From a virus (lineage: Duplodnaviria > Heunggongvirae > Uroviricota > Caudoviricetes): 8,403 bases of DNA. The notes under the pieces were generated by a model that did not search any database, had not been told where the DNA came from, and saw only the letters and a list, made by a program, of their open reading frames with translations. Positions 315-5,726 of the stretch are shown piece by piece; within the stretch, counting starts at the first letter, position 1; the number at the start of each line of letters is the position of its first letter. The translations under genes and the position numbers were made by a program. Where the stretch lies: the IMG/VR virus record IMGVR_UViG_2802429224_000013; one strand, written 5' to 3'.

Positions 315-467
315 CTATTCCGACTTTAAGCTGAATGTGACTTTACCTATATCTTTAGAGGTGTGGTCGCGCTTGACCTCTATTTCACCATTTTGTAGCC
401 CTGCTACAAAAAAATATAAAAGTGTCAATGCTGCTGCAATCAGTAACCATTTTCTAGGAATATACAT
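315..467 (-). CDS. Small single-pass membrane protein (50 aa), function unknown
   Basis: Hand-translated minus-strand ORF, below the length cutoff of the supplied track: MYIPRKWLLIAAALTLLYFFVAGLQNGEIEVKRDHTSKDIGKVTFSLKSE. It has a basic N-terminus, an ~18-residue hydrophobic helix and a charged tail. It starts 21 nt after the RHH stop, on the same strand, upstream of the terminator at 33-63. The SD is weak (AAGGG, 11 nt upstream). No homologue recognised. Confidence 0.45.
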   Translation of the reverse strand: MYIPRKWLLIAAALTLLYFFVAGLQNGEIEVKRDHTSKDIGKVTFSLKSE

Positions 468-488: not shown

Positions 489-662
489 TCAACCTTTTGG
501 CTCGATGCCCCGCTGTTGTAATTCTTTGCGGAGTACTCGTTTAATCCAAGTAGCTAATGAGGTGTCGCCGTCTGCTTTGGCTGCCTCCTCAAGTTGCGCT
601 CTAAATTCTTCTGGTAGTCGCATTTGGTATGGTGGCGATCGTTTCTCTAATGGTGTTGACAT
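489..662 (-). CDS. Arc/Mnt-family ribbon-helix-helix DNA-binding protein (57 aa), probable island repressor
   Basis: Hand-translated minus-strand ORF, not in the track: MSTPLEKRSPPYQMRLPEEFRAQLEEAAKADGDTSLATWIKRVLRKELQQRGIEPKG. The segment PPYQMRLPEEFRAQL...DGDTSLATWIKRVL aligns by eye with P22 Arc (PQFNLRWPREVLDL...NGRSVNSEIYQRVM), giving beta-strand, helix, helix. The SD AAGGG lies 8 nt before the ATG. The start codon abuts a perfect palindrome. Confidence 0.72.
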   Translation of the reverse strand: MSTPLEKRSPPYQMRLPEEFRAQLEEAAKADGDTSLATWIKRVLRKELQQRGIEPKG

Positions 663-684
663 GGTAATTACCCTTAATTACTAT
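656..684 (+). promoter_or_regulatory. Putative sigma70 promoter for the rightward operon
   Basis: Seen in sequence: consensus -35 TTGACA (656-661), a 17-nt spacer, then TACTAT (679-684, 4/6 to TATAAT). The spacer contains the GGTAATTACC palindrome. The predicted start near 691 gives a ~100-nt 5' UTR before the ATG at 793. A possible leftward -10 TACAAT is the complement of 703-708. Not experimentally supported. Confidence 0.4.
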
Positions 685-714
685 AGTTACATGGTAATTA
701 CCATTGTACTTACC
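659..714. promoter_or_regulatory. Operator region: two copies of palindrome GGTAATTACC plus an extra half-site
   Basis: Seen in sequence: the 14-bp exact direct repeat ACATGGTAATTACC occurs at 659-672 and 689-702, 30 bp apart centre to centre. Each copy contains the perfect 10-bp palindrome GGTAATTACC (663-672, 693-702). A further TTACC half-site lies at 710-714. The repeats sit between divergent genes, overlap both putative promoters and abut the RHH start codon. Assigning them to the RHH protein is inference. Confidence 0.55.
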
Positions 715-720
715 ATTACG

Positions 721-762
721 CAAAAAACAACGCCCCGCAGTGCTGGAACACATGCAGGGCGT
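721..762 (-). terminator. Orphan minus-strand intrinsic-terminator-like hairpin inside the rightward 5' UTR
   Basis: Seen in sequence: ACGCCCCGCA (730-739) pairs with TGCAGGGCGT (753-762), a 10-bp GC-rich stem with one mismatch and a 13-nt loop. On the minus strand it is followed by UGUUUUUUG (complement of 721-729). No minus-strand gene lies upstream of it, so it may end a small antisense RNA. Confidence 0.5.
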
Positions 763-792: not shown

Positions 793-1161
793 ATGGCTGG
801 AACACAGCATACCCAAACTCACCCTAAATTTATATACACCTTCCTGGCGGTGCACCGTGATTGCATCGCTGACGGTAAAAATACTGTTCATGTAGCCGCC
901 GATACGCTGGTTGATGCCTGCGAGATGCTCAATGACATGGGCTATATCTCGGCAACATGGAAAGGGCGTGAAGAAAACACGTTGTTTATTCAGAAATGCG
1001 AAAACAATTTTATCTGGCGTTTTATCGCCCTGAGTACGGCACAACCGCGCGTGATTCACATCGAGGCCACCAGCGAACAGGAAGCACGCCAGCAATCTCC
1101 TGATGGCTGCGTGATGGTATTCGCTGCCCGTATTCGCCAGGAGGTGCATCATGTGCAATAA
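793..1161 (+). CDS. Icd-like (host cell division inhibitor-like / Ash-region) protein, 122 aa
   Basis: This is the C-terminal part of track ORF 10..1161. GAGG (781-784) lies 8 nt before the ATG at 793. The motif THPKFIYTFLAV...NFIWRFIAL...RVIHIEATSEQEAR...VMVFAARIRQEV matches my memory of proteins annotated 'host cell division inhibitor Icd-like' in P4-like and PICI-like islands. That family call is from recall and is not verified. Confidence 0.6.
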   Translation: MAGTQHTQTHPKFIYTFLAVHRDCIADGKNTVHVAADTLVDACEMLNDMGYISATWKGREENTLFIQKCENNFIWRFIALSTAQPRVIHIEATSEQEARQQSPDGCVMVFAARIRQEVHHVQ

Positions 1162-1369
1162 AAACACGCCGGACGCAGCCGCCGAAGCCATCAAAACGCT
1201 AATGCACGCGCTGATTGATATTAATTACACGGCAGGGCTGGCAAAGAATAAAAAAGATGCGGTATTCACATCGAGCGTACTGGAATCTATTCAGATTATT
1301 GCTGAGCATGCACTGAATAAATCTCAAAATATTCTGATTGCTGATGTGCAGGAGGTGCACCATGCATAA
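1151..1369 (+). CDS. Hypothetical small protein (72 aa)
   Basis: Track ORF. AGGAGG (1139-1144) lies 6 nt before the ATG at 1151, and the start overlaps the upstream gene end by 11 nt, which indicates translational coupling. No family recognised. Confidence 0.6.
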   Translation: MCNKNTPDAAAEAIKTLMHALIDINYTAGLAKNKKDAVFTSSVLESIQIIAEHALNKSQNILIADVQEVHHA

Positions 1370-1730
1370 CCTGTCAATTTCTGACCTTAACAGCATTCAG
1401 TTTGACGAGAAATTTACCGGGCAGTTGCTGGTCAATGTGGAGAACGGGCGCATAGTGCGTAATTACCACCTGCCGGATGGTGCAATTGCCGGAAGCGTTG
1501 AAGCATTGCTGGAACTGGCGGAACGTGCGCGACTGATTAAGCCGTCAACGTGCCATCACGATGATGATCTGCATTTTACCGGGTGTATGGTGAGTCACTA
1601 CGAAAACGGCGTTGAAGTATCCTGCGAACGTCTGCGTGATGATTGCTGTTTCGGCACACTGCCGGAATTTATCGAATTGCTGACCAGTTGCGGTTATCAG
1701 GTCATTCAGGGGGGGGTGAATCATGGGTAA
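1362..1730 (+). CDS. Hypothetical protein (122 aa) with two copies of an ~45-aa FTG...(E/D)(N/K)G repeat
   Basis: Track ORF 1338..1730, with the start moved to the ATG at 1362 because AGGAGG (1350-1355) lies 6 nt upstream. It overlaps the upstream stop. The internal duplication is visible in the translation (FTGQLLVNVENGRIV... and FTGCMVSHYENGVEV...). Confidence 0.68.
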   Translation: MHNLSISDLNSIQFDEKFTGQLLVNVENGRIVRNYHLPDGAIAGSVEALLELAERARLIKPSTCHHDDDLHFTGCMVSHYENGVEVSCERLRDDCCFGTLPEFIELLTSCGYQVIQGGVNHG

Positions 1731-1923
1731 TAAGCCAGCAACAATGACAATTACCCTGAATGTGCCAGAGGATTTCACCGGACGCATACTGGTTTACCTG
1801 GATAAAGGGAAAGTGAAATCACAATGCCGGCTGCGAAATAATGAAATTGTAAGTACGGCAGAAGGCTTTTCTGAACTCTGTATTAGTGCAGGAATAAAAC
1901 CGGAACTGCTGACAGGAAAATAA
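1723..1923 (+). CDS. Hypothetical protein (66 aa) with one copy of the same FTG repeat
   Basis: Track ORF. A G-rich SD (GGGGGGGTG, 1710-1718) precedes the ATG at 1723, and the start overlaps the upstream stop (TAA 1728-1730). The segment FTGRILVYLDKGKV... is paralogous to the repeats in 1362-1730. Confidence 0.62.
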   Translation: MGNKPATMTITLNVPEDFTGRILVYLDKGKVKSQCRLRNNEIVSTAEGFSELCISAGIKPELLTGK

Positions 1924-1927
1924 AACC

Positions 1928-2218
1928 ATGAAAAAGAAAAATTCTGGCTTTACTGCCAGCGGTCTCTCTCGGCCTGAAATCAGACACGGAGATATTTACC
2001 GCGACACCAGACGTGGGGGACGAGTGGTTATTCGTCACGTTACGCCAGGCAATATCACCTACCGCCGTGAGGCTTACGAATATGACTGCGTAATGCCGCG
2101 CCGTCAGTTTGAGCGTGATTTTATTCTGGTTGAAAACAAACAACAGGCAGTGGCAAGACGTGCAGCCACGAATATTAAAAAAATCCGGGCAATGTTGGTT
2201 GCGGGAGGTAAGAAGTGA
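1928..2218 (+). CDS. DUF4222-like small protein (96 aa)
   Basis: Track ORF. AGGAAA lies 8 nt upstream of the start. The pattern GDIYRDTRRGGRVVIRHVTPGNITYRREAYEYDCVMPRRQFERDF resembles DUF4222 proteins common in enterobacterial prophage-like islands. That call is from recall. The stop overlaps the next start (GTGA at 2215-2218). Confidence 0.65.
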   Translation: MKKKNSGFTASGLSRPEIRHGDIYRDTRRGGRVVIRHVTPGNITYRREAYEYDCVMPRRQFERDFILVENKQQAVARRAATNIKKIRAMLVAGGKK

Positions 2219-3627
2219 AAAACGCACCGAATTTAAAATATCAGCCGAAGGATAAATTCACCGAGGTAATCATTTTTGCCGGGACGGACGCTTACTCCCA
2301 TGCTCAACACTGGATTGAAAGCGAAGGACGAAAACACGGCGATAACGTACCACCTGTTTACCTGGGGCCGAAGCAACTGGCAGACCTGGCGAATATCCGC
2401 ATTATTGACGAGAAACGCCGCTTTGCGCGTGTCTATCTCGCGGGGGAGATCGAACCAATCCAGATCAATGCTATCGCTGAAAAACTGGCGCTGGCTGGCG
2501 TACAGGAGGCGAAATTATACAAAGGCATCACCGACCGGGAGCCGGAGAACTGGCGCGATTACCTGCAACGAATCCGCGAACAGCCAGAGCACGAAGAAAT
2601 GCTTACTGACGAGCAATACAGCCAGCGAAAAACCACACTACCAATGAGCATTGGATCGGAAGGATATGATTCACAGCTTAGCTATGTAGTTAAGGGCGTG
2701 ATTCCGGCTAATTCGCTATGTAGCACATACGGTGCGAGCGGTTCTTATAAGTCGTTCCTTGCGTGTTCGTGGGCATGTCATGTTGCTACCGGTATCCCGT
2801 GGGGAGGTCGCAGGGTTGTACATGGTGCGGTTATGTATGTCGTTGGTGAGGGCGGGATCGGTGTTCCTCGTCGTATCAAGGCATGGGAACTGGTGAACAG
2901 TGAGCAGGTGAAAAATCTGTACCTGGTAAATCGTCCAATTTTTCCGGCCGCACCGAGTGATGTTGATGAAATGGTTATTGCTGCCCGACAGGTTGAGCTG
3001 GAAACGGGTAAACCTGTACGCATGATTATTCTGGATACTCTGGCGCGTTGCTTTGGTGGCAGCGATGAAAATGATGCGCGGGATATGGGGGCATTTGTCC
3101 ATGGATGTGACGAACTGAAACGGCGTACAGGCGCTACAGTGCTGGTAATTCACCATTCCGGCAAGGATGAAACAAAGGGTGCGCGCGGTTCCAGTGCGTT
3201 TCGTGCAGCACTGGATGCAGAGTACCGGATACGCCGTGAAGGTGCAGGCAGTGAAGCCCTGGTTATCGCATGTACCAAGATGAAGGATGCGGAGGAACTG
3301 AAAGAAATGGCTTGCGATTTGCGCGAGGTTGAGCTTTTCAAGGATGAAGGCGGGGAGTTAATCACGTCGTTGGTGCTGGAGGATAAACCCCGTCCGCCAG
3401 TTGAACTGGAGCGCATCGAGTACGTTGCTAACAAGACAGAGAATCACGCCGCGCTATGGGGCTGTATCCGTTCACGCACGCAACGCGGAGATAAATGCAC
3501 TATCCCGTTGTTGCGCGATGACATGAAAAAGCTGGGGTATGAGATGAAAAACTTCCGACGCTGGCTGTACAAGCTGGAAGGTGACGGCGTAATCGCTATT
3601 GACGATGATGACGTGCGCCCACTGTAA
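2215..3627 (+). CDS. Replication initiator/helicase-type RecA-fold ATPase (AAA_25/RepA-DnaB-like), 470 aa, with C-terminal winged-helix-like domain
   Basis: This is the longest ORF. It has a GTG start coupled to the upstream stop. The Walker A-like motif is GASGSYKS (nt 2731-2754) and the Walker B-like motif is MIILD (nt 3022-3036). LARCFGGSDENDARDMGAF and VLVIHHSGKD are typical of AAA_25/RepA-type proteins. The basic C-terminal ~70 aa is consistent with a DNA-binding domain. Iterons begin at its stop codon. Confidence 0.88.
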   Translation: MKNAPNLKYQPKDKFTEVIIFAGTDAYSHAQHWIESEGRKHGDNVPPVYLGPKQLADLANIRIIDEKRRFARVYLAGEIEPIQINAIAEKLALAGVQEAKLYKGITDREPENWRDYLQRIREQPEHEEMLTDEQYSQRKTTLPMSIGSEGYDSQLSYVVKGVIPANSLCSTYGASGSYKSFLACSWACHVATGIPWGGRRVVHGAVMYVVGEGGIGVPRRIKAWELVNSEQVKNLYLVNRPIFPAAPSDVDEMVIAARQVELETGKPVRMIILDTLARCFGGSDENDARDMGAFVHGCDELKRRTGATVLVIHHSGKDETKGARGSSAFRAALDAEYRIRREGAGSEALVIACTKMKDAEELKEMACDLREVELFKDEGGELITSLVLEDKPRPPVELERIEYVANKTENHAALWGCIRSRTQRGDKCTIPLLRDDMKKLGYEMKNFRRWLYKLEGDGVIAIDDDDVRPL

Positions 3628-4013
3628 AAAGTGAGGCGTAAAAGTGAGGGGGACAGGGAATATTTAAAAATCACCCCTGTTTCCCTCACTTCTCAACCTG
3701 TATATATACCAAAAAGTGAGGAGTTAATTTTGTACTAAAAAAACAAAGAGTTAAGTGTATTCGCATTTTCTATTTTTGAATATAGGGCAAATAATAAATG
3801 TGAGTAGTAAATGTGAGGAATAGTGAGTAAATAGAATAAATTCTCTGGAAATTACAAACAGGTAAAAAATAAAACAAATAAAGATTTTAACTAAAACTTA
3901 ACTATTTGCCTCATATTTGCGTATATATAGGGGTTTTAAAGTGAATACTTAAAAATACATTTAAAATCATATTGTTATTAACTTCATAAATTCTCACTGT
4001 GTAGCAGGTGAGG
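3626..4013. other. Putative origin of replication: GTGAG(G) iterons flanking an AT-rich core
   Basis: Seen in sequence: AAAAGTGAGG occurs at 3627-3636, 3640-3649 and 3712-3721, with an inverted copy CCTCACTT at 3684-3691. Variants are AAATGTGAGT (3796-3805), AAATGTGAGG (3809-3818), AATAGTGAGT (3819-3828), an inverted CTCAC (3993-3997) and GTGAGG (4008-4013). The clusters flank a very AT-rich stretch (~3829-3992) containing GTATATATA at 3700-3708 and 3921-3929. A 15-bp imperfect inverted repeat spans 3644-3658 and 3675-3689. The origin function is inferred from its position next to the replication gene, as in SaPI/PICI ori. Confidence 0.62.
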
Positions 4014-4038
4014 AATTAAAAAATCAGGAATGTTAAAA

Positions 4039-4812
4039 ATGAAAACAGAACGTTACATACCTCAGGGTATGACTTACATAGAGCGTGAAGAACTGAAAAG
4101 TTTTGCGACATCATGTGGACTACGCGGCGATATTCAGAGCCTTACCAGAACTCTGATAATGATTGCGCACTGGATGAGGCAGGGTAAGCCAGTGAGCTTC
4201 ACAGAATACGCCAGCCAGTGGACAGAGGCACAGCGCGAACGGGACGACGGTAATCACTCAACGCCTGAAATGGCGAAGCAATGGCCTTTCAGTGGCAAAC
4301 GATGCATTTATCCCAGGTGCTCCGATTACTACCCATACGGAACGGAAAGAGAACATCAGGATGACGAAACGGAAATTAAACACGCAGTAACGGTAATTCT
4401 TGCCAAATACCCGTTTTTTAACCGCAATGGTCTTGTTCGGTATAGCCGTGACAAGCCATGGGAGCACCCGCTTGATTATGTCTGTTTTATGGAGGAGGCA
4501 AAAAGCTGTTTGCGCTGGATAAGGGAGAACAATCTTACCGACTGCAAAATTGCATCATTCCCCGGTAAAAATCCGACATCCTACGGCCTGAAACATTGTG
4601 TTGAACGGGCGAATCAAATAAGAGCAAAGGCAAACGGAAAACCCACGGAGCCGACGTATATCACAAACGGTGCTCTAATTGCCGCAATGGTCGCGGCTGG
4701 TTATCAGATAAAGCCTGAAGGAAGGATGAATTGCCGATTCAATATTTCGCGTAAGCAGCTTAAGAGTGTATTGAGCGGGGAATCTTACAAATCAGGAGAG
4801 TGGACGATATAA
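4039..4812 (+). CDS. Hypothetical protein (257 aa), no family recognised
   Basis: Track ORF 4030..4812. The ATG at 4039 is preferred because AGGA (4026-4029) lies 9 nt upstream and abuts the ATG at 4030. It is the first gene after the AT-rich ori region and contains several Cys residues (for example CIYPRC). I cannot assign a domain by eye. Confidence 0.72.
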   Translation: MKTERYIPQGMTYIEREELKSFATSCGLRGDIQSLTRTLIMIAHWMRQGKPVSFTEYASQWTEAQRERDDGNHSTPEMAKQWPFSGKRCIYPRCSDYYPYGTEREHQDDETEIKHAVTVILAKYPFFNRNGLVRYSRDKPWEHPLDYVCFMEEAKSCLRWIRENNLTDCKIASFPGKNPTSYGLKHCVERANQIRAKANGKPTEPTYITNGALIAAMVAAGYQIKPEGRMNCRFNISRKQLKSVLSGESYKSGEWTI

Positions 4813-4835: not shown

Positions 4836-5366
4836 ATGACTAAGCTGACCATTAACAGAAAACCAAAAGGCATTTACGGCACGCCGCAGAAAACGACGCA
4901 GGCGGCGCAAGAGCAGGATAAAACCACGTCGGCGCATAAAGTGATGCCCGGTAACCAGAAAGCGCAGCAGAAGCCCACAGGGGCGACACCGTGGCGGCAT
5001 ATGACCAAACGCCAGCGCAAAAACCGCAGGCGCGTTAACCGCCTCACTGAGTTGTGGCCTGACTTATTCAGCCGGGAAGCACCGAAGCCGCTTAAGGTGG
5101 GGATATTCGACGACCTGATGCAGGATCTCGCCGTCAGGGGGCTGGCATTCGGGCCAGGGGCATTGCGTGCGACGCTGGCATCTTATGCGCAGTGTCCGCG
5201 CTATTACCGCGCCTTAATGGCTGGTGGGGTACGCTACGACCTGAAAGGCCAGCCGTGCGGCGAGGTGACACCACAGGAACAACAGGACGCAGAAACGCGG
5301 CTGGTGGCGCTGAATGAGAAGCGCAAACGTCAGCGCCGGGCAGCAAAGGAGAAAACAGGCGCATGA
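4836..5366 (+). CDS. ProQ/FinO-domain RNA-binding protein (RNA chaperone family)
   Basis: Track ORF 4800..5366. The start is uncertain: GTG 4800, ATG 4824 or ATG 4836, with 4836 having GGGG 6 nt upstream. The N-terminus is basic and Gln-rich. The segment LTELWPDLFS..PKPLKVGIFDDLMQD...GALRATLASYAQCPRYYRALMAGGVRYDLKGQPCGEVT matches the ProQ/FinO domain signature as I remember it. Confidence 0.78.
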   Translation: MTKLTINRKPKGIYGTPQKTTQAAQEQDKTTSAHKVMPGNQKAQQKPTGATPWRHMTKRQRKNRRRVNRLTELWPDLFSREAPKPLKVGIFDDLMQDLAVRGLAFGPGALRATLASYAQCPRYYRALMAGGVRYDLKGQPCGEVTPQEQQDAETRLVALNEKRKRQRRAAKEKTGA

Positions 5367-5650: not shown

Positions 5651-5655
5651 CGGAG

Positions 5656-5679
5656 GCCGGGATTTTTCCCGGCTTTTTT
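5656..5679 (+). terminator. Rho-independent terminator ending the first rightward operon
   Basis: Seen in sequence: GCCGGGA (5656-5662), TTTT loop, TCCCGGC (5667-5673), then TTTTTT (5674-5679). It starts 6 nt after the PerC-like stop. Confidence 0.78.
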
Positions 5680-5685
5680 GTGCCA

Positions 5686-5726
5686 GTAAAAAACCCGCAG
5701 CCAGAAGTGTTGCGGGCTTTGTTTTT
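5686..5726. terminator. Second, bidirectional-looking terminator hairpin
   Basis: Seen in sequence: CCCGCA (5694-5699) pairs with TGCGGG (5711-5716), extendable by a G.U and a C-G pair. An A-run precedes it (5686-5693) and CTTTGTTTTT follows (5717-5726). Confidence 0.55.

Follow-up and report, generated by a model that had tools for sequence, protein, structure and literature searches.

Phage-inducible chromosomal islands (PICIs) of Gram-negative bacteria have a published layout of integration, 'Bro', replication and late zones (PMC10111431). Induction of EcCICFT073 requires AlpA and can be brought about by over-expressing AlpA, and helper phages turn alpA on in this island (PMC6092414). AlpA is also required in EcCIEDL933 (10.1101/2022.09.08.507074). 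The global repressor in Gram-negative PICIs has been called 'unclear' (PMC6092414), and a literature search covering few subscription journals found no paper describing a ribbon-helix-helix (RHH) or Arc repressor in PICIs. The DNA considered here is a viral stretch of 8,403 nucleotides (IMG/VR record IMGVR_UViG_2802429224_000013), referred to below as the window. Near its left end, a gene for a 57-amino-acid RHH protein, a set of operator-like palindromes and a predicted antisense RNA lie at the head of a rightward operon. As read from its sequence, this region is probably a dual-lock cassette for negative control of the early/replication operon in a PICI-type satellite, in which the RHH protein and the antisense RNA are the two locks.

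The RHH protein is encoded on the minus strand at 489–662. Its start codon (660–662) abuts the first of three operator-like sites, O1, which is the perfect palindrome GGTAATTACC at 663–672 and keeps this offset in almost every locus whose protein belongs to the same β-strand class. O1 occupies the spacer of a rightward promoter, P_R (656–684, plus strand), composed of TTGACA at 656–661, a 17-bp spacer and TACTAT at 679–684. P_R agrees with the consensus in 10 of 12 positions, has a predicted start near 691 and was the sole plus-strand promoter-like site detected within 1–1300 by a consensus scan. Its -35 hexamer is encoded by codons 1 and 2 (ATG TCA) of the RHH gene. The second site, O2, is the 14-bp perfect palindrome ATGGTAATTACCAT at 691–704 (core 693–702; GGTAAnnACC in relatives), located at about +1 of P_R and beside the -10 hexamer of a putative leftward promoter, P_L (703–730, minus strand). 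The latter can be read from the sequence as -10 TACAAT (708–703), a 16-bp spacer and a weak -35 TTGTTT (730–725). The third site, O3, is GTACTTACC at 705–714, a degenerate site TGTACTTACC (TGTAATTACA in relatives), and its centre lies 12 bp from that of O2.

The palindrome GGTAATTACC is found at both 663–672 and 693–702, within a 14-bp exact repeat, ACATGGTAATTACC, at 659–672 and 689–702 with a spacing of 30 bp. When up to one mismatch was allowed, the window contained three matches to the palindrome against 0.14 expected, and none of 200 shuffled sequences reached three. The arrangement of operators and promoters is far from chance. The sequence TTAATTAC at 674–681 is not conserved. A one-mismatch copy of the operator, CGTAATTACC, lies at 1458–1467 inside the third ORF (open reading frame) of the operon and may be a chance occurrence or an auxiliary site.

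For comparison, 60 loci were fetched from species-representative genomes. The same module layout recurs in about 60 loci from Gammaproteobacteria, beside P4-type integrases and primase/helicase operons, and consists of a start codon overlapping TTGACA, a palindrome in the spacer, a TAnnAT -10 hexamer, a second palindrome and a third site. In the 24 distinct loci of the window's own class, the conserved columns correspond to the -35 with O1, the -10, O2 and O3, and the spacers are variable; across these related loci the -35 of P_R is nearly invariant and a -10 of the TAnnAT type is kept. A TAnnAT hexamer directly after O2 also recurs among relatives, and the GG and TG classes have a site equivalent to O3 at the corresponding offset. 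The distance between O1 and O2 ranges from 29 to 35 bp among relatives, and that between O2 and O3 is about 12 bp in every locus read.

The initial annotation of the window had described twin identical palindromes in a 14-bp repeat 30 bp apart, a TTGACA-17-TACTAT promoter bracketing the first of them, a possible leftward -10 TACAAT (complement of 703–708) adjoining the second, and a 57-amino-acid Arc-like protein with its start codon adjoining a palindrome. All of these elements were located at the positions given above. The two proposed operators are present and conserved, but there are three conserved sites, of which O3 had been missed. The argument that a separation of three helical turns points to cooperative binding is weak, because the O1–O2 spacing is not fixed and the constant pair is O2–O3. 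Since the operators overlap the conserved P_R and the plausible P_L, repression combined with autoregulation is the natural reading.

Comparison of the RHH ORF with an 85%-identical E. coli relative (L002) gave a nonsynonymous value (pN) of 0.009 and a synonymous value (pS) of 0.74, which indicates purifying selection; pN was low in all comparisons of the ORF, in the same pattern. There are 93 homologues of the protein, with E-values of 1e-10 to 1e-28, from Enterobacterales, Pasteurellales, Aeromonadales and Orbales; almost every one is 56–58 amino acids long, and a few carry the name 'Arc family DNA-binding protein'. The gene is not annotated in the genome of E. coli ETEC1748, and elsewhere it is usually unannotated or overlaid by a plus-strand 'Icd-like' gene or pseudogene. 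A plus-strand open frame of 383 codons (10–1161) crosses the RHH gene in frame with the Icd-like gene that heads the rightward operon. In many E. coli genomes the NCBI annotation pipeline (PGAP) calls 'Icd-like' gene or pseudogene pieces on this frame and omits the RHH gene (e.g. L002, 3554–4147). The ORF 10–1161 was considered as a real gene and rejected, since most relatives close the frame within 12–100 nt ahead of the ATG at 793. The PGAP calls across the RHH gene look like mis-annotations. As judged by the strong purifying selection and the closure of the plus-strand frame in most relatives, the minus-strand ORF is a genuine gene.

The 57-amino-acid protein matched PHROG 228 ('Arc-like repressor') over residues 6–55 with an E-value of 4.9e-7, and hhalign placed its RSPQYQMRL segment on KMPQFNLRW of Arc (E 6.7e-4) and DDPHFNFRM of Mnt (E 1.5e-3). 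In this register, Q/P11, Q13 and R15 match the base-contacting Q9, N11 and R13 of Arc, which occupy alternate positions of the strand. A strand is predicted at about residues 11–17, and the AlphaFold (AF2) model, with a predicted local distance difference test (pLDDT) score of 77.6, shows an extended N-terminus and helices at 18–31 and 36–50, fitting a β-α-α order. With a conserved turn of the G-x-S/T/N kind, D-G-D-T-S, at residues 31–35, the protein has the layout of a β-strand and two helices typical of RHH proteins. The top Foldseek matches were nearly all RHH proteins (AmrZ, Arc, CopG, ParG, NikR and RHH antitoxins), every one with E >1; the match to AmrZ had a root mean square deviation of 1.5 over 39 columns. 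The NCBIfam YlcI/YnfO model scored 20 against a cut-off of 30, and a sequence-profile search of the PDB returned only designed helical repeat proteins and was uninformative. The RHH fold of the protein is well supported. Of the earlier label 'Arc/Mnt-type RHH', the RHH and Arc-like part is borne out by the PHROG and hhalign matches, the Foldseek list and the AF2 model, but the score for Pfam Arc is under the cut-off. The protein would work like Arc but falls short of the threshold for strict membership of PF03869.

The palindromes change in step with the predicted DNA-reading β-strand of the protein. Proteins of the class RSP[QP][YF]QMRL are accompanied by the operator GGTAATTACC, those with RSPQFPMRL by GGTATATACC, those with KTDQYQ[IL]RL by TGTAATTACA, and the β-strand variants of Pasteurellaceae by TGTAATTAC-, while the class GNPPFQFRL has the operators GTTAATTACAC and TGTAATGACA-CATTACA. 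An invariant Arg15 accompanies an invariant GTA..TAC core, and where Gln13 is replaced by Pro, the operator centre is TATA instead of AATT. On this pattern, Arg15 would recognise the core and residue 13 the centre. The co-variation is the best available evidence that the protein binds the predicted operators. The proposal that the palindromes are operators of the RHH protein, already made in the initial annotation, gains from the conserved position of the palindromes and from their co-variation with the β-strand across genera.

A further element, which the initial annotation had missed, is a predicted and conserved cis-antisense RNA of about 77 nt on the minus strand (722–798). It would comprise a 5' stem-loop (798–765) with a CCUC anti-Shine-Dalgarno sequence in the loop, a terminator (762–730) and a U-run (729–722). 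The hairpin at 730–762, with an A-run before it on the plus strand, has the form of an intrinsic terminator on the minus strand, and the hairpin at 773–789 holds the Shine-Dalgarno (SD) sequence in its loop. The first gene of the rightward operon is the Icd-like gene (793–1161, plus strand; NCBIfam phage_ICD_like, 80.6 bits), which is annotated as such in the island of ETEC1748 and has the SD GAGG at 781–784. The predicted antisense RNA spans the start codon and SD of this gene, to which it is fully complementary. The -10 hexamer of its predicted promoter, TATGCT (806–811, minus strand), lies inside codons 5–7 of the Icd-like gene and places the start of the RNA near 798 (AGCCAU...).

A minus-strand TAnnnT hexamer at +14 to +19 of the first-gene ATG was found in all 55 distinct loci, which have 45 different coding starts; at the next most frequent position it was present in 25 of the 55. 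Conservation of the antisense promoter and start at this place would explain why unrelated first genes all start with ATGGCT. Each of the 36 homologues that were folded forms the same two stem-loops, the first with CCUC or CUCC in its loop, and ends in a U-rich tail. When 38 distinct homologues were aligned, 12 of 17 base pairs had changed on both sides, and none of 500 shuffles reached the observed values. Cells other than Watson-Crick pairs are mostly G·U when read on the minus strand (40 versus 17). In the window, the folding energy is -35.2 kcal/mol (z -5.2) for the minus strand and -22.5 kcal/mol (z -2.2) for the plus strand. Every homologue folded likewise has its more stable structure on the minus strand, with means of -32.2 kcal/mol (minus) and -21.5 kcal/mol (plus). 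An action of the hairpin 730–762 in the leader of the plus-strand mRNA was considered and rejected, as the U-run, the G·U bias and a fold better by about 11 kcal/mol (36/36) favour the minus strand.

No Rfam family reached its threshold at the antisense site in 16 sources; a match to SymR (RF01809) at 798–726 was below threshold (26.2 bits versus 61, E 0.13) and is a likeness of shape only. In some PICIs, C4 and isrK are the markers of immunity RNAs. Neither model found a match in the window, where the Rfam scan yielded no more than two matches, both sub-threshold. The predicted RNA would be a second layer of control and, being absent from Rfam, is a candidate for a new RNA family. In Pasteurella testudinis (L032, 3507–3723), Rfam C4 (65.6 bits) and isrK (60.7 bits) elements lie in the operon downstream of the RHH module; therefore the protein, the cis-antisense RNA and immunity RNAs of the P1/P4 type can co-occur in one satellite.

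In the proposed mechanism, Arc-like RHH dimers would bind O1, O2 and O3. With O1 and O2 occupied, RNA polymerase would be excluded from P_R, and the operon at 793–3627, from the Icd-like gene to the gene for a RepA-type helicase, would be shut off. As O2 and O3 overlap the -10 and start of P_L, the protein would also limit its own synthesis. Transcripts escaping this first lock would meet the second one, the ~77-nt RNA, which would block translation of the first gene, possibly with a polar effect on the genes downstream. Binding, repression, autoregulation, expression of the RNA and relief upon induction are all inferred from the sequence features. RHH repressors with palindromes overlapping promoters and cis-antisense RNAs are both of well-known kinds. 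New here are their conserved pairing at the head of a replication operon of Gram-negative satellites, the specificity classes, and a gene that is largely unannotated.

The assignment to a PICI-type satellite follows from the closest relative of the window, an island inserted at yifB in E. coli ETEC1748, which is 95% identical across 97% of the window. This island has, in order, genes for a tyrosine integrase, a 62-amino-acid helix-turn-helix (HTH) protein and an AntA/AntB protein, and then an unannotated gap that corresponds to 17–793 of the window. Beyond the gap follow the Icd-like gene with small ORFs, DUF4222, a RepA-family helicase, ProQ/FinO, PerC, NUDIX and DUF2213. The HTH protein encoded next to int is AlpA (Pfam, 65.9 bits). 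The window itself holds the replication and late zones (RepA helicase, DUF4222, ProQ, PerC and DUF2213); int and alpA fall outside it and are located just upstream in the ETEC1748 island. By its predicted layout, the island is a Gram-negative PICI, with int and alpA at one end, a co-oriented replication module, a small size and no full set of phage genes.

Several observations weigh against the dual-lock reading. The score for Pfam Arc (PF03869) is 16.5 bits (E 0.0079), below the gathering threshold of 20.4. No strand forms in the AF2 monomer, which is to be expected if the fold requires a dimer, and the Foldseek E-values exceed 1 owing to the tiny query. P_L resembles the consensus only weakly and escaped the consensus scan, and the -35 of the antisense promoter is poor in the window's own subtype. 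The co-variation of operator and β-strand is confounded by shared ancestry and extends over only about five classes. Finally, EcCICFT073 has an equivalent module and is inducible by over-expression of AlpA alone; hence AlpA can override the cassette, and the primary decision point may lie elsewhere.

The last point also counts against the stronger claim of the initial annotation, in which the RHH protein is the master repressor, equivalent to Stl or Rpr, and is removed by an antirepressor encoded by the helper phage or the island. The divergent layout of repressor gene and replication operon does mirror that of Gram-positive PICIs, and the study that describes it leaves the global repressor of the Gram-negative islands 'unclear' (PMC6092414). 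The module is conserved across many satellites, and in the nearest relative the gene for the AntA/AntB antirepressor lies between alpA and the module. Because a protein of the AntA type is encoded just upstream of the module, an antirepressor route of the island's own is conceivable. However, AlpA is both required and sufficient in EcCICFT073 despite the equivalent module (PMC6092414), and is required in EcCIEDL933 (10.1101/2022.09.08.507074). The literature searched offered no genetic or interaction data that would point to a partner protein or a derepression phenotype, and with a second, RNA-based lock in place removal of the protein alone may not suffice. The master-repressor claim is therefore doubtful. 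Still less likely is its extension to an undescribed immunity cassette of Gram-negative PICI-type satellites, with an exchangeable RHH-type repressor and operators in several specificity classes and a near-universal cis-antisense RNA. There the RHH protein would be the missing equivalent of Stl, its removal would commit the satellite to replication, and it could be removed by a helper protein or by the island's own AntA-type antirepressor under control of AlpA. Given that alpA is present in the closest relative and that the AlpA-dependent EcCICFT073 has the same architecture, the RHH protein coexists with the AlpA pathway and does not replace AlpA. Most likely, the RHH module and the antisense RNA keep the replication genes of the satellite off, as their sequences suggest, and AlpA and/or an antirepressor acts upstream of the cassette or in parallel with it. 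The genes c1499 and c1500, which were deleted without phenotype in a 2018 study, were considered as the small divergent genes and rejected. They are the capsid and decoration genes, and the result says nothing on the module.

Copy control of plasmid pMV158 pairs an RHH repressor with a short countertranscript that lies across the translation start of the gene heading the replication operon. By analogy with this same pairing, the module might mainly be a circuit of replication dosage and immunity. Levels of the RHH protein and the countertranscript would then increase with copy number once the island has excised, and the two would feed back on the replication operon and silence incoming copies of the same specificity type. 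Distinct classes of operator and protein on a common scaffold are what would be expected of immunity types, and the genetics of AlpA leave room for such a role (PMC6092414). Here, though, the RHH gene is divergent from the regulated operon and not part of it. In addition, the integrated single-copy state would still be repressed, so that this explanation, which is possible but tentative, overlaps with the dual-lock cassette and does not exclude it. It is very unlikely that another factor (AlpA, or a host or helper protein) binds the palindromes while the RHH protein acts elsewhere. The palindrome changes with the β-strand class of the RHH protein, its position beside the RHH start codon is fixed in about 60 loci, and inverted repeats of 10–14 bp suit RHH dimers. 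Antitoxins with an RHH fold are common, some sources label homologues 'HicB family antitoxin', and in the window a small hydrophobic ORF lies behind the RHH gene; the protein could on these grounds be an antitoxin paired with this membrane-like ORF of 50 amino acids (315–467, minus strand). Yet the ORF has no family match, most loci lack such a neighbour of the RHH gene, and 300–800 is covered in 10 of 5,426 E. coli genomes versus 454 for 489–720. The operators, moreover, lie on the divergent promoter of the replication operon, and the toxin-antitoxin explanation deserves hardly any weight.

Downstream of the Icd-like gene, the operon transcribed from P_R continues at 1151–3627 (plus strand) with small ORFs, DUF4222 (1928–2218; Pfam, 69.8 bits) and the RepA-type helicase (2215–3627; AAA_25, 150.5 bits). 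On the other side, the 50-amino-acid ORF at 315–467, which has a hydrophobic stretch and matches no protein family, follows the RHH gene, and the stretch around it is rare, as seen from the coverage of 300–800 given above. About 250 bases (67–314) without a clear gene precede a hairpin at 41–66, which is terminator-like on the minus strand and has a weaker T-rich tail on the plus strand. This hairpin stands between antA, which ends at 17, and the leftward unit, and it separates the alpA-antA unit from the RHH module. At 5654–5723 on the plus strand, behind the PerC-like gene, two GC-rich hairpins with U-runs stand one after the other. Their Rfam match to a Bacillus small RNA was sub-threshold (28 bits versus 60), and they are most likely a tandem terminator.

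At least 80% of 489–720 is present in the 454 of 5,426 complete E. coli genomes noted above, including O157:H7, O145 and O111 strains. The O157:H7 copy is not claimed to be the capsid-forming PICI (cf-PICI) EcCIEDL933, as the island at roxA-phoQ in O55/O157 is about 11 kb and has no portal and terminase-large genes. Among 50,697 phage records, the window had no match and the 57-amino-acid protein had a homologue in only four, so it is nearly absent from such records. The best match was OR544139.1, 'Pasteurella phage Pmp8' (15,321 bp), with the RHH module at 5007–5183; the gene content of this record, which was submitted as a phage, is cf-PICI-like (integrase remnant, AlpA-type regulator, primase, TerS/TerL, HNH, portal and protease). 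Within 4 kb behind the RHH gene, the largest ORF encodes a P4-type integrase in 24 of 52 loci, and the operon side encodes D5_N/DUF5906, Toprim/zinc-ribbon primase or DUF927 proteins.

Modules of the GNPPFQFRL class, with leader hairpins and a gene start of the Icd-like type, were also seen on two plasmids (L004, 4001–8318, and the IncX1 plasmid NZ_OY754837.1), followed on both by a hypothetical gene, a gene for a WYL-domain protein and a BREX system. Homologues at 60–80% identity are present in about 100 further plasmid records. The plasmid modules may be a satellite remnant with defence cargo. In Photorhabdus loci (L036 and L038–L041, ~2600–4160), two copies of the RHH module occur about 1.2 kb apart; in one copy, Ile replaces the start Met and the terminator stem is degraded. 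The doubled module looks like a tandem or decaying satellite.

A candidate repressor of this kind would fill a gap, as none has been described for Gram-negative phage satellites in the literature searched. A divergent RHH gene is conserved at the place where Gram-positive PICIs keep Stl or Rpr, and the operators that co-vary with its product lie on the replication-operon promoter. The module is therefore a concrete candidate for how Gram-negative satellites stay silent. The distinct classes of protein and operator suggest immunity types among satellites. Such types bear on exclusion of one satellite by another and on the engineering of PICIs as delivery vehicles.

The organisation of the module can be compared with that of several known systems. 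Phage P22 immI, with its promoters Pant and Pmnt, likewise has a small RHH repressor of the Arc type, with operators inside and just after a strong promoter, an opposite promoter of the repressor gene that shares these operators, and a short cis-antisense RNA (sar) over the ribosome-binding site (RBS) of a downstream gene. The likeness to immI put forward in the initial annotation is stronger than was claimed there, as a sar-like cis-antisense RNA is also predicted in the window. The two differ in that P22 has two RHH genes (Mnt and Arc) and the window one. Furthermore, the operon of P22 encodes the antirepressor, whereas that of the window encodes the Icd-like protein and a replication helicase, and the three 10-bp palindromes contrast with a 21-bp Arc operator and a 17-bp Mnt operator. 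Sequence similarity of the window protein to Arc and Mnt of P22 is marginal. Plasmid pMV158/pLS1 combines the RHH repressor CopG with the antisense RNAII, which masks the start of the first replication-operon gene. Unlike the divergent RHH gene of the window, copG is co-transcribed with repB; CopG binds a 13-bp pseudo-symmetric element, and the replicon is a rolling-circle plasmid, not an integrative satellite.

The gene for Stl of Staphylococcus aureus pathogenicity islands (SaPIs) or for Rpr of Gram-positive islands is also divergent from the excision and replication operon of the satellite. Only this gene layout is shared with the window. Stl and Rpr are large HTH proteins that are inactivated on binding helper-phage proteins, and in the Gram-negative islands of E. 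coli induction depends on AlpA (PMC6092414). In immI of P1/P7 (c4, icd, ant), the first gene, of the icd type, is controlled by a small RNA complementary to its RBS, with consequences downstream. C4, however, arises by processing of the same transcript, and its action on repeated sites is in trans, in contrast to the predicted cis-antisense RNA of the window.

The equivalent module of EcCICFT073 was located at 1380473–1380860 of the CFT073 genome (NC_004431.1; L067, 8473–8860); no discussion of it was found in the literature searched. It lies between alpA and the icd-like/primase operon and includes a small divergent gene, a TTGACG-17-TATAGT promoter with two copies of a repeat, one in the spacer and one following the -10, and the two leader hairpins also seen in the window. 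It differs from the window in its repeats, which are GTGGGCCACACC, and in the divergent protein of 59 amino acids, which belongs to the YlcI/YnfO family and is not significantly similar to the RHH protein (hhalign E 0.054). As the architecture is the same but the protein and repeats differ, the scaffold is a common one and the specificity is exchanged, as expected of immunity types.

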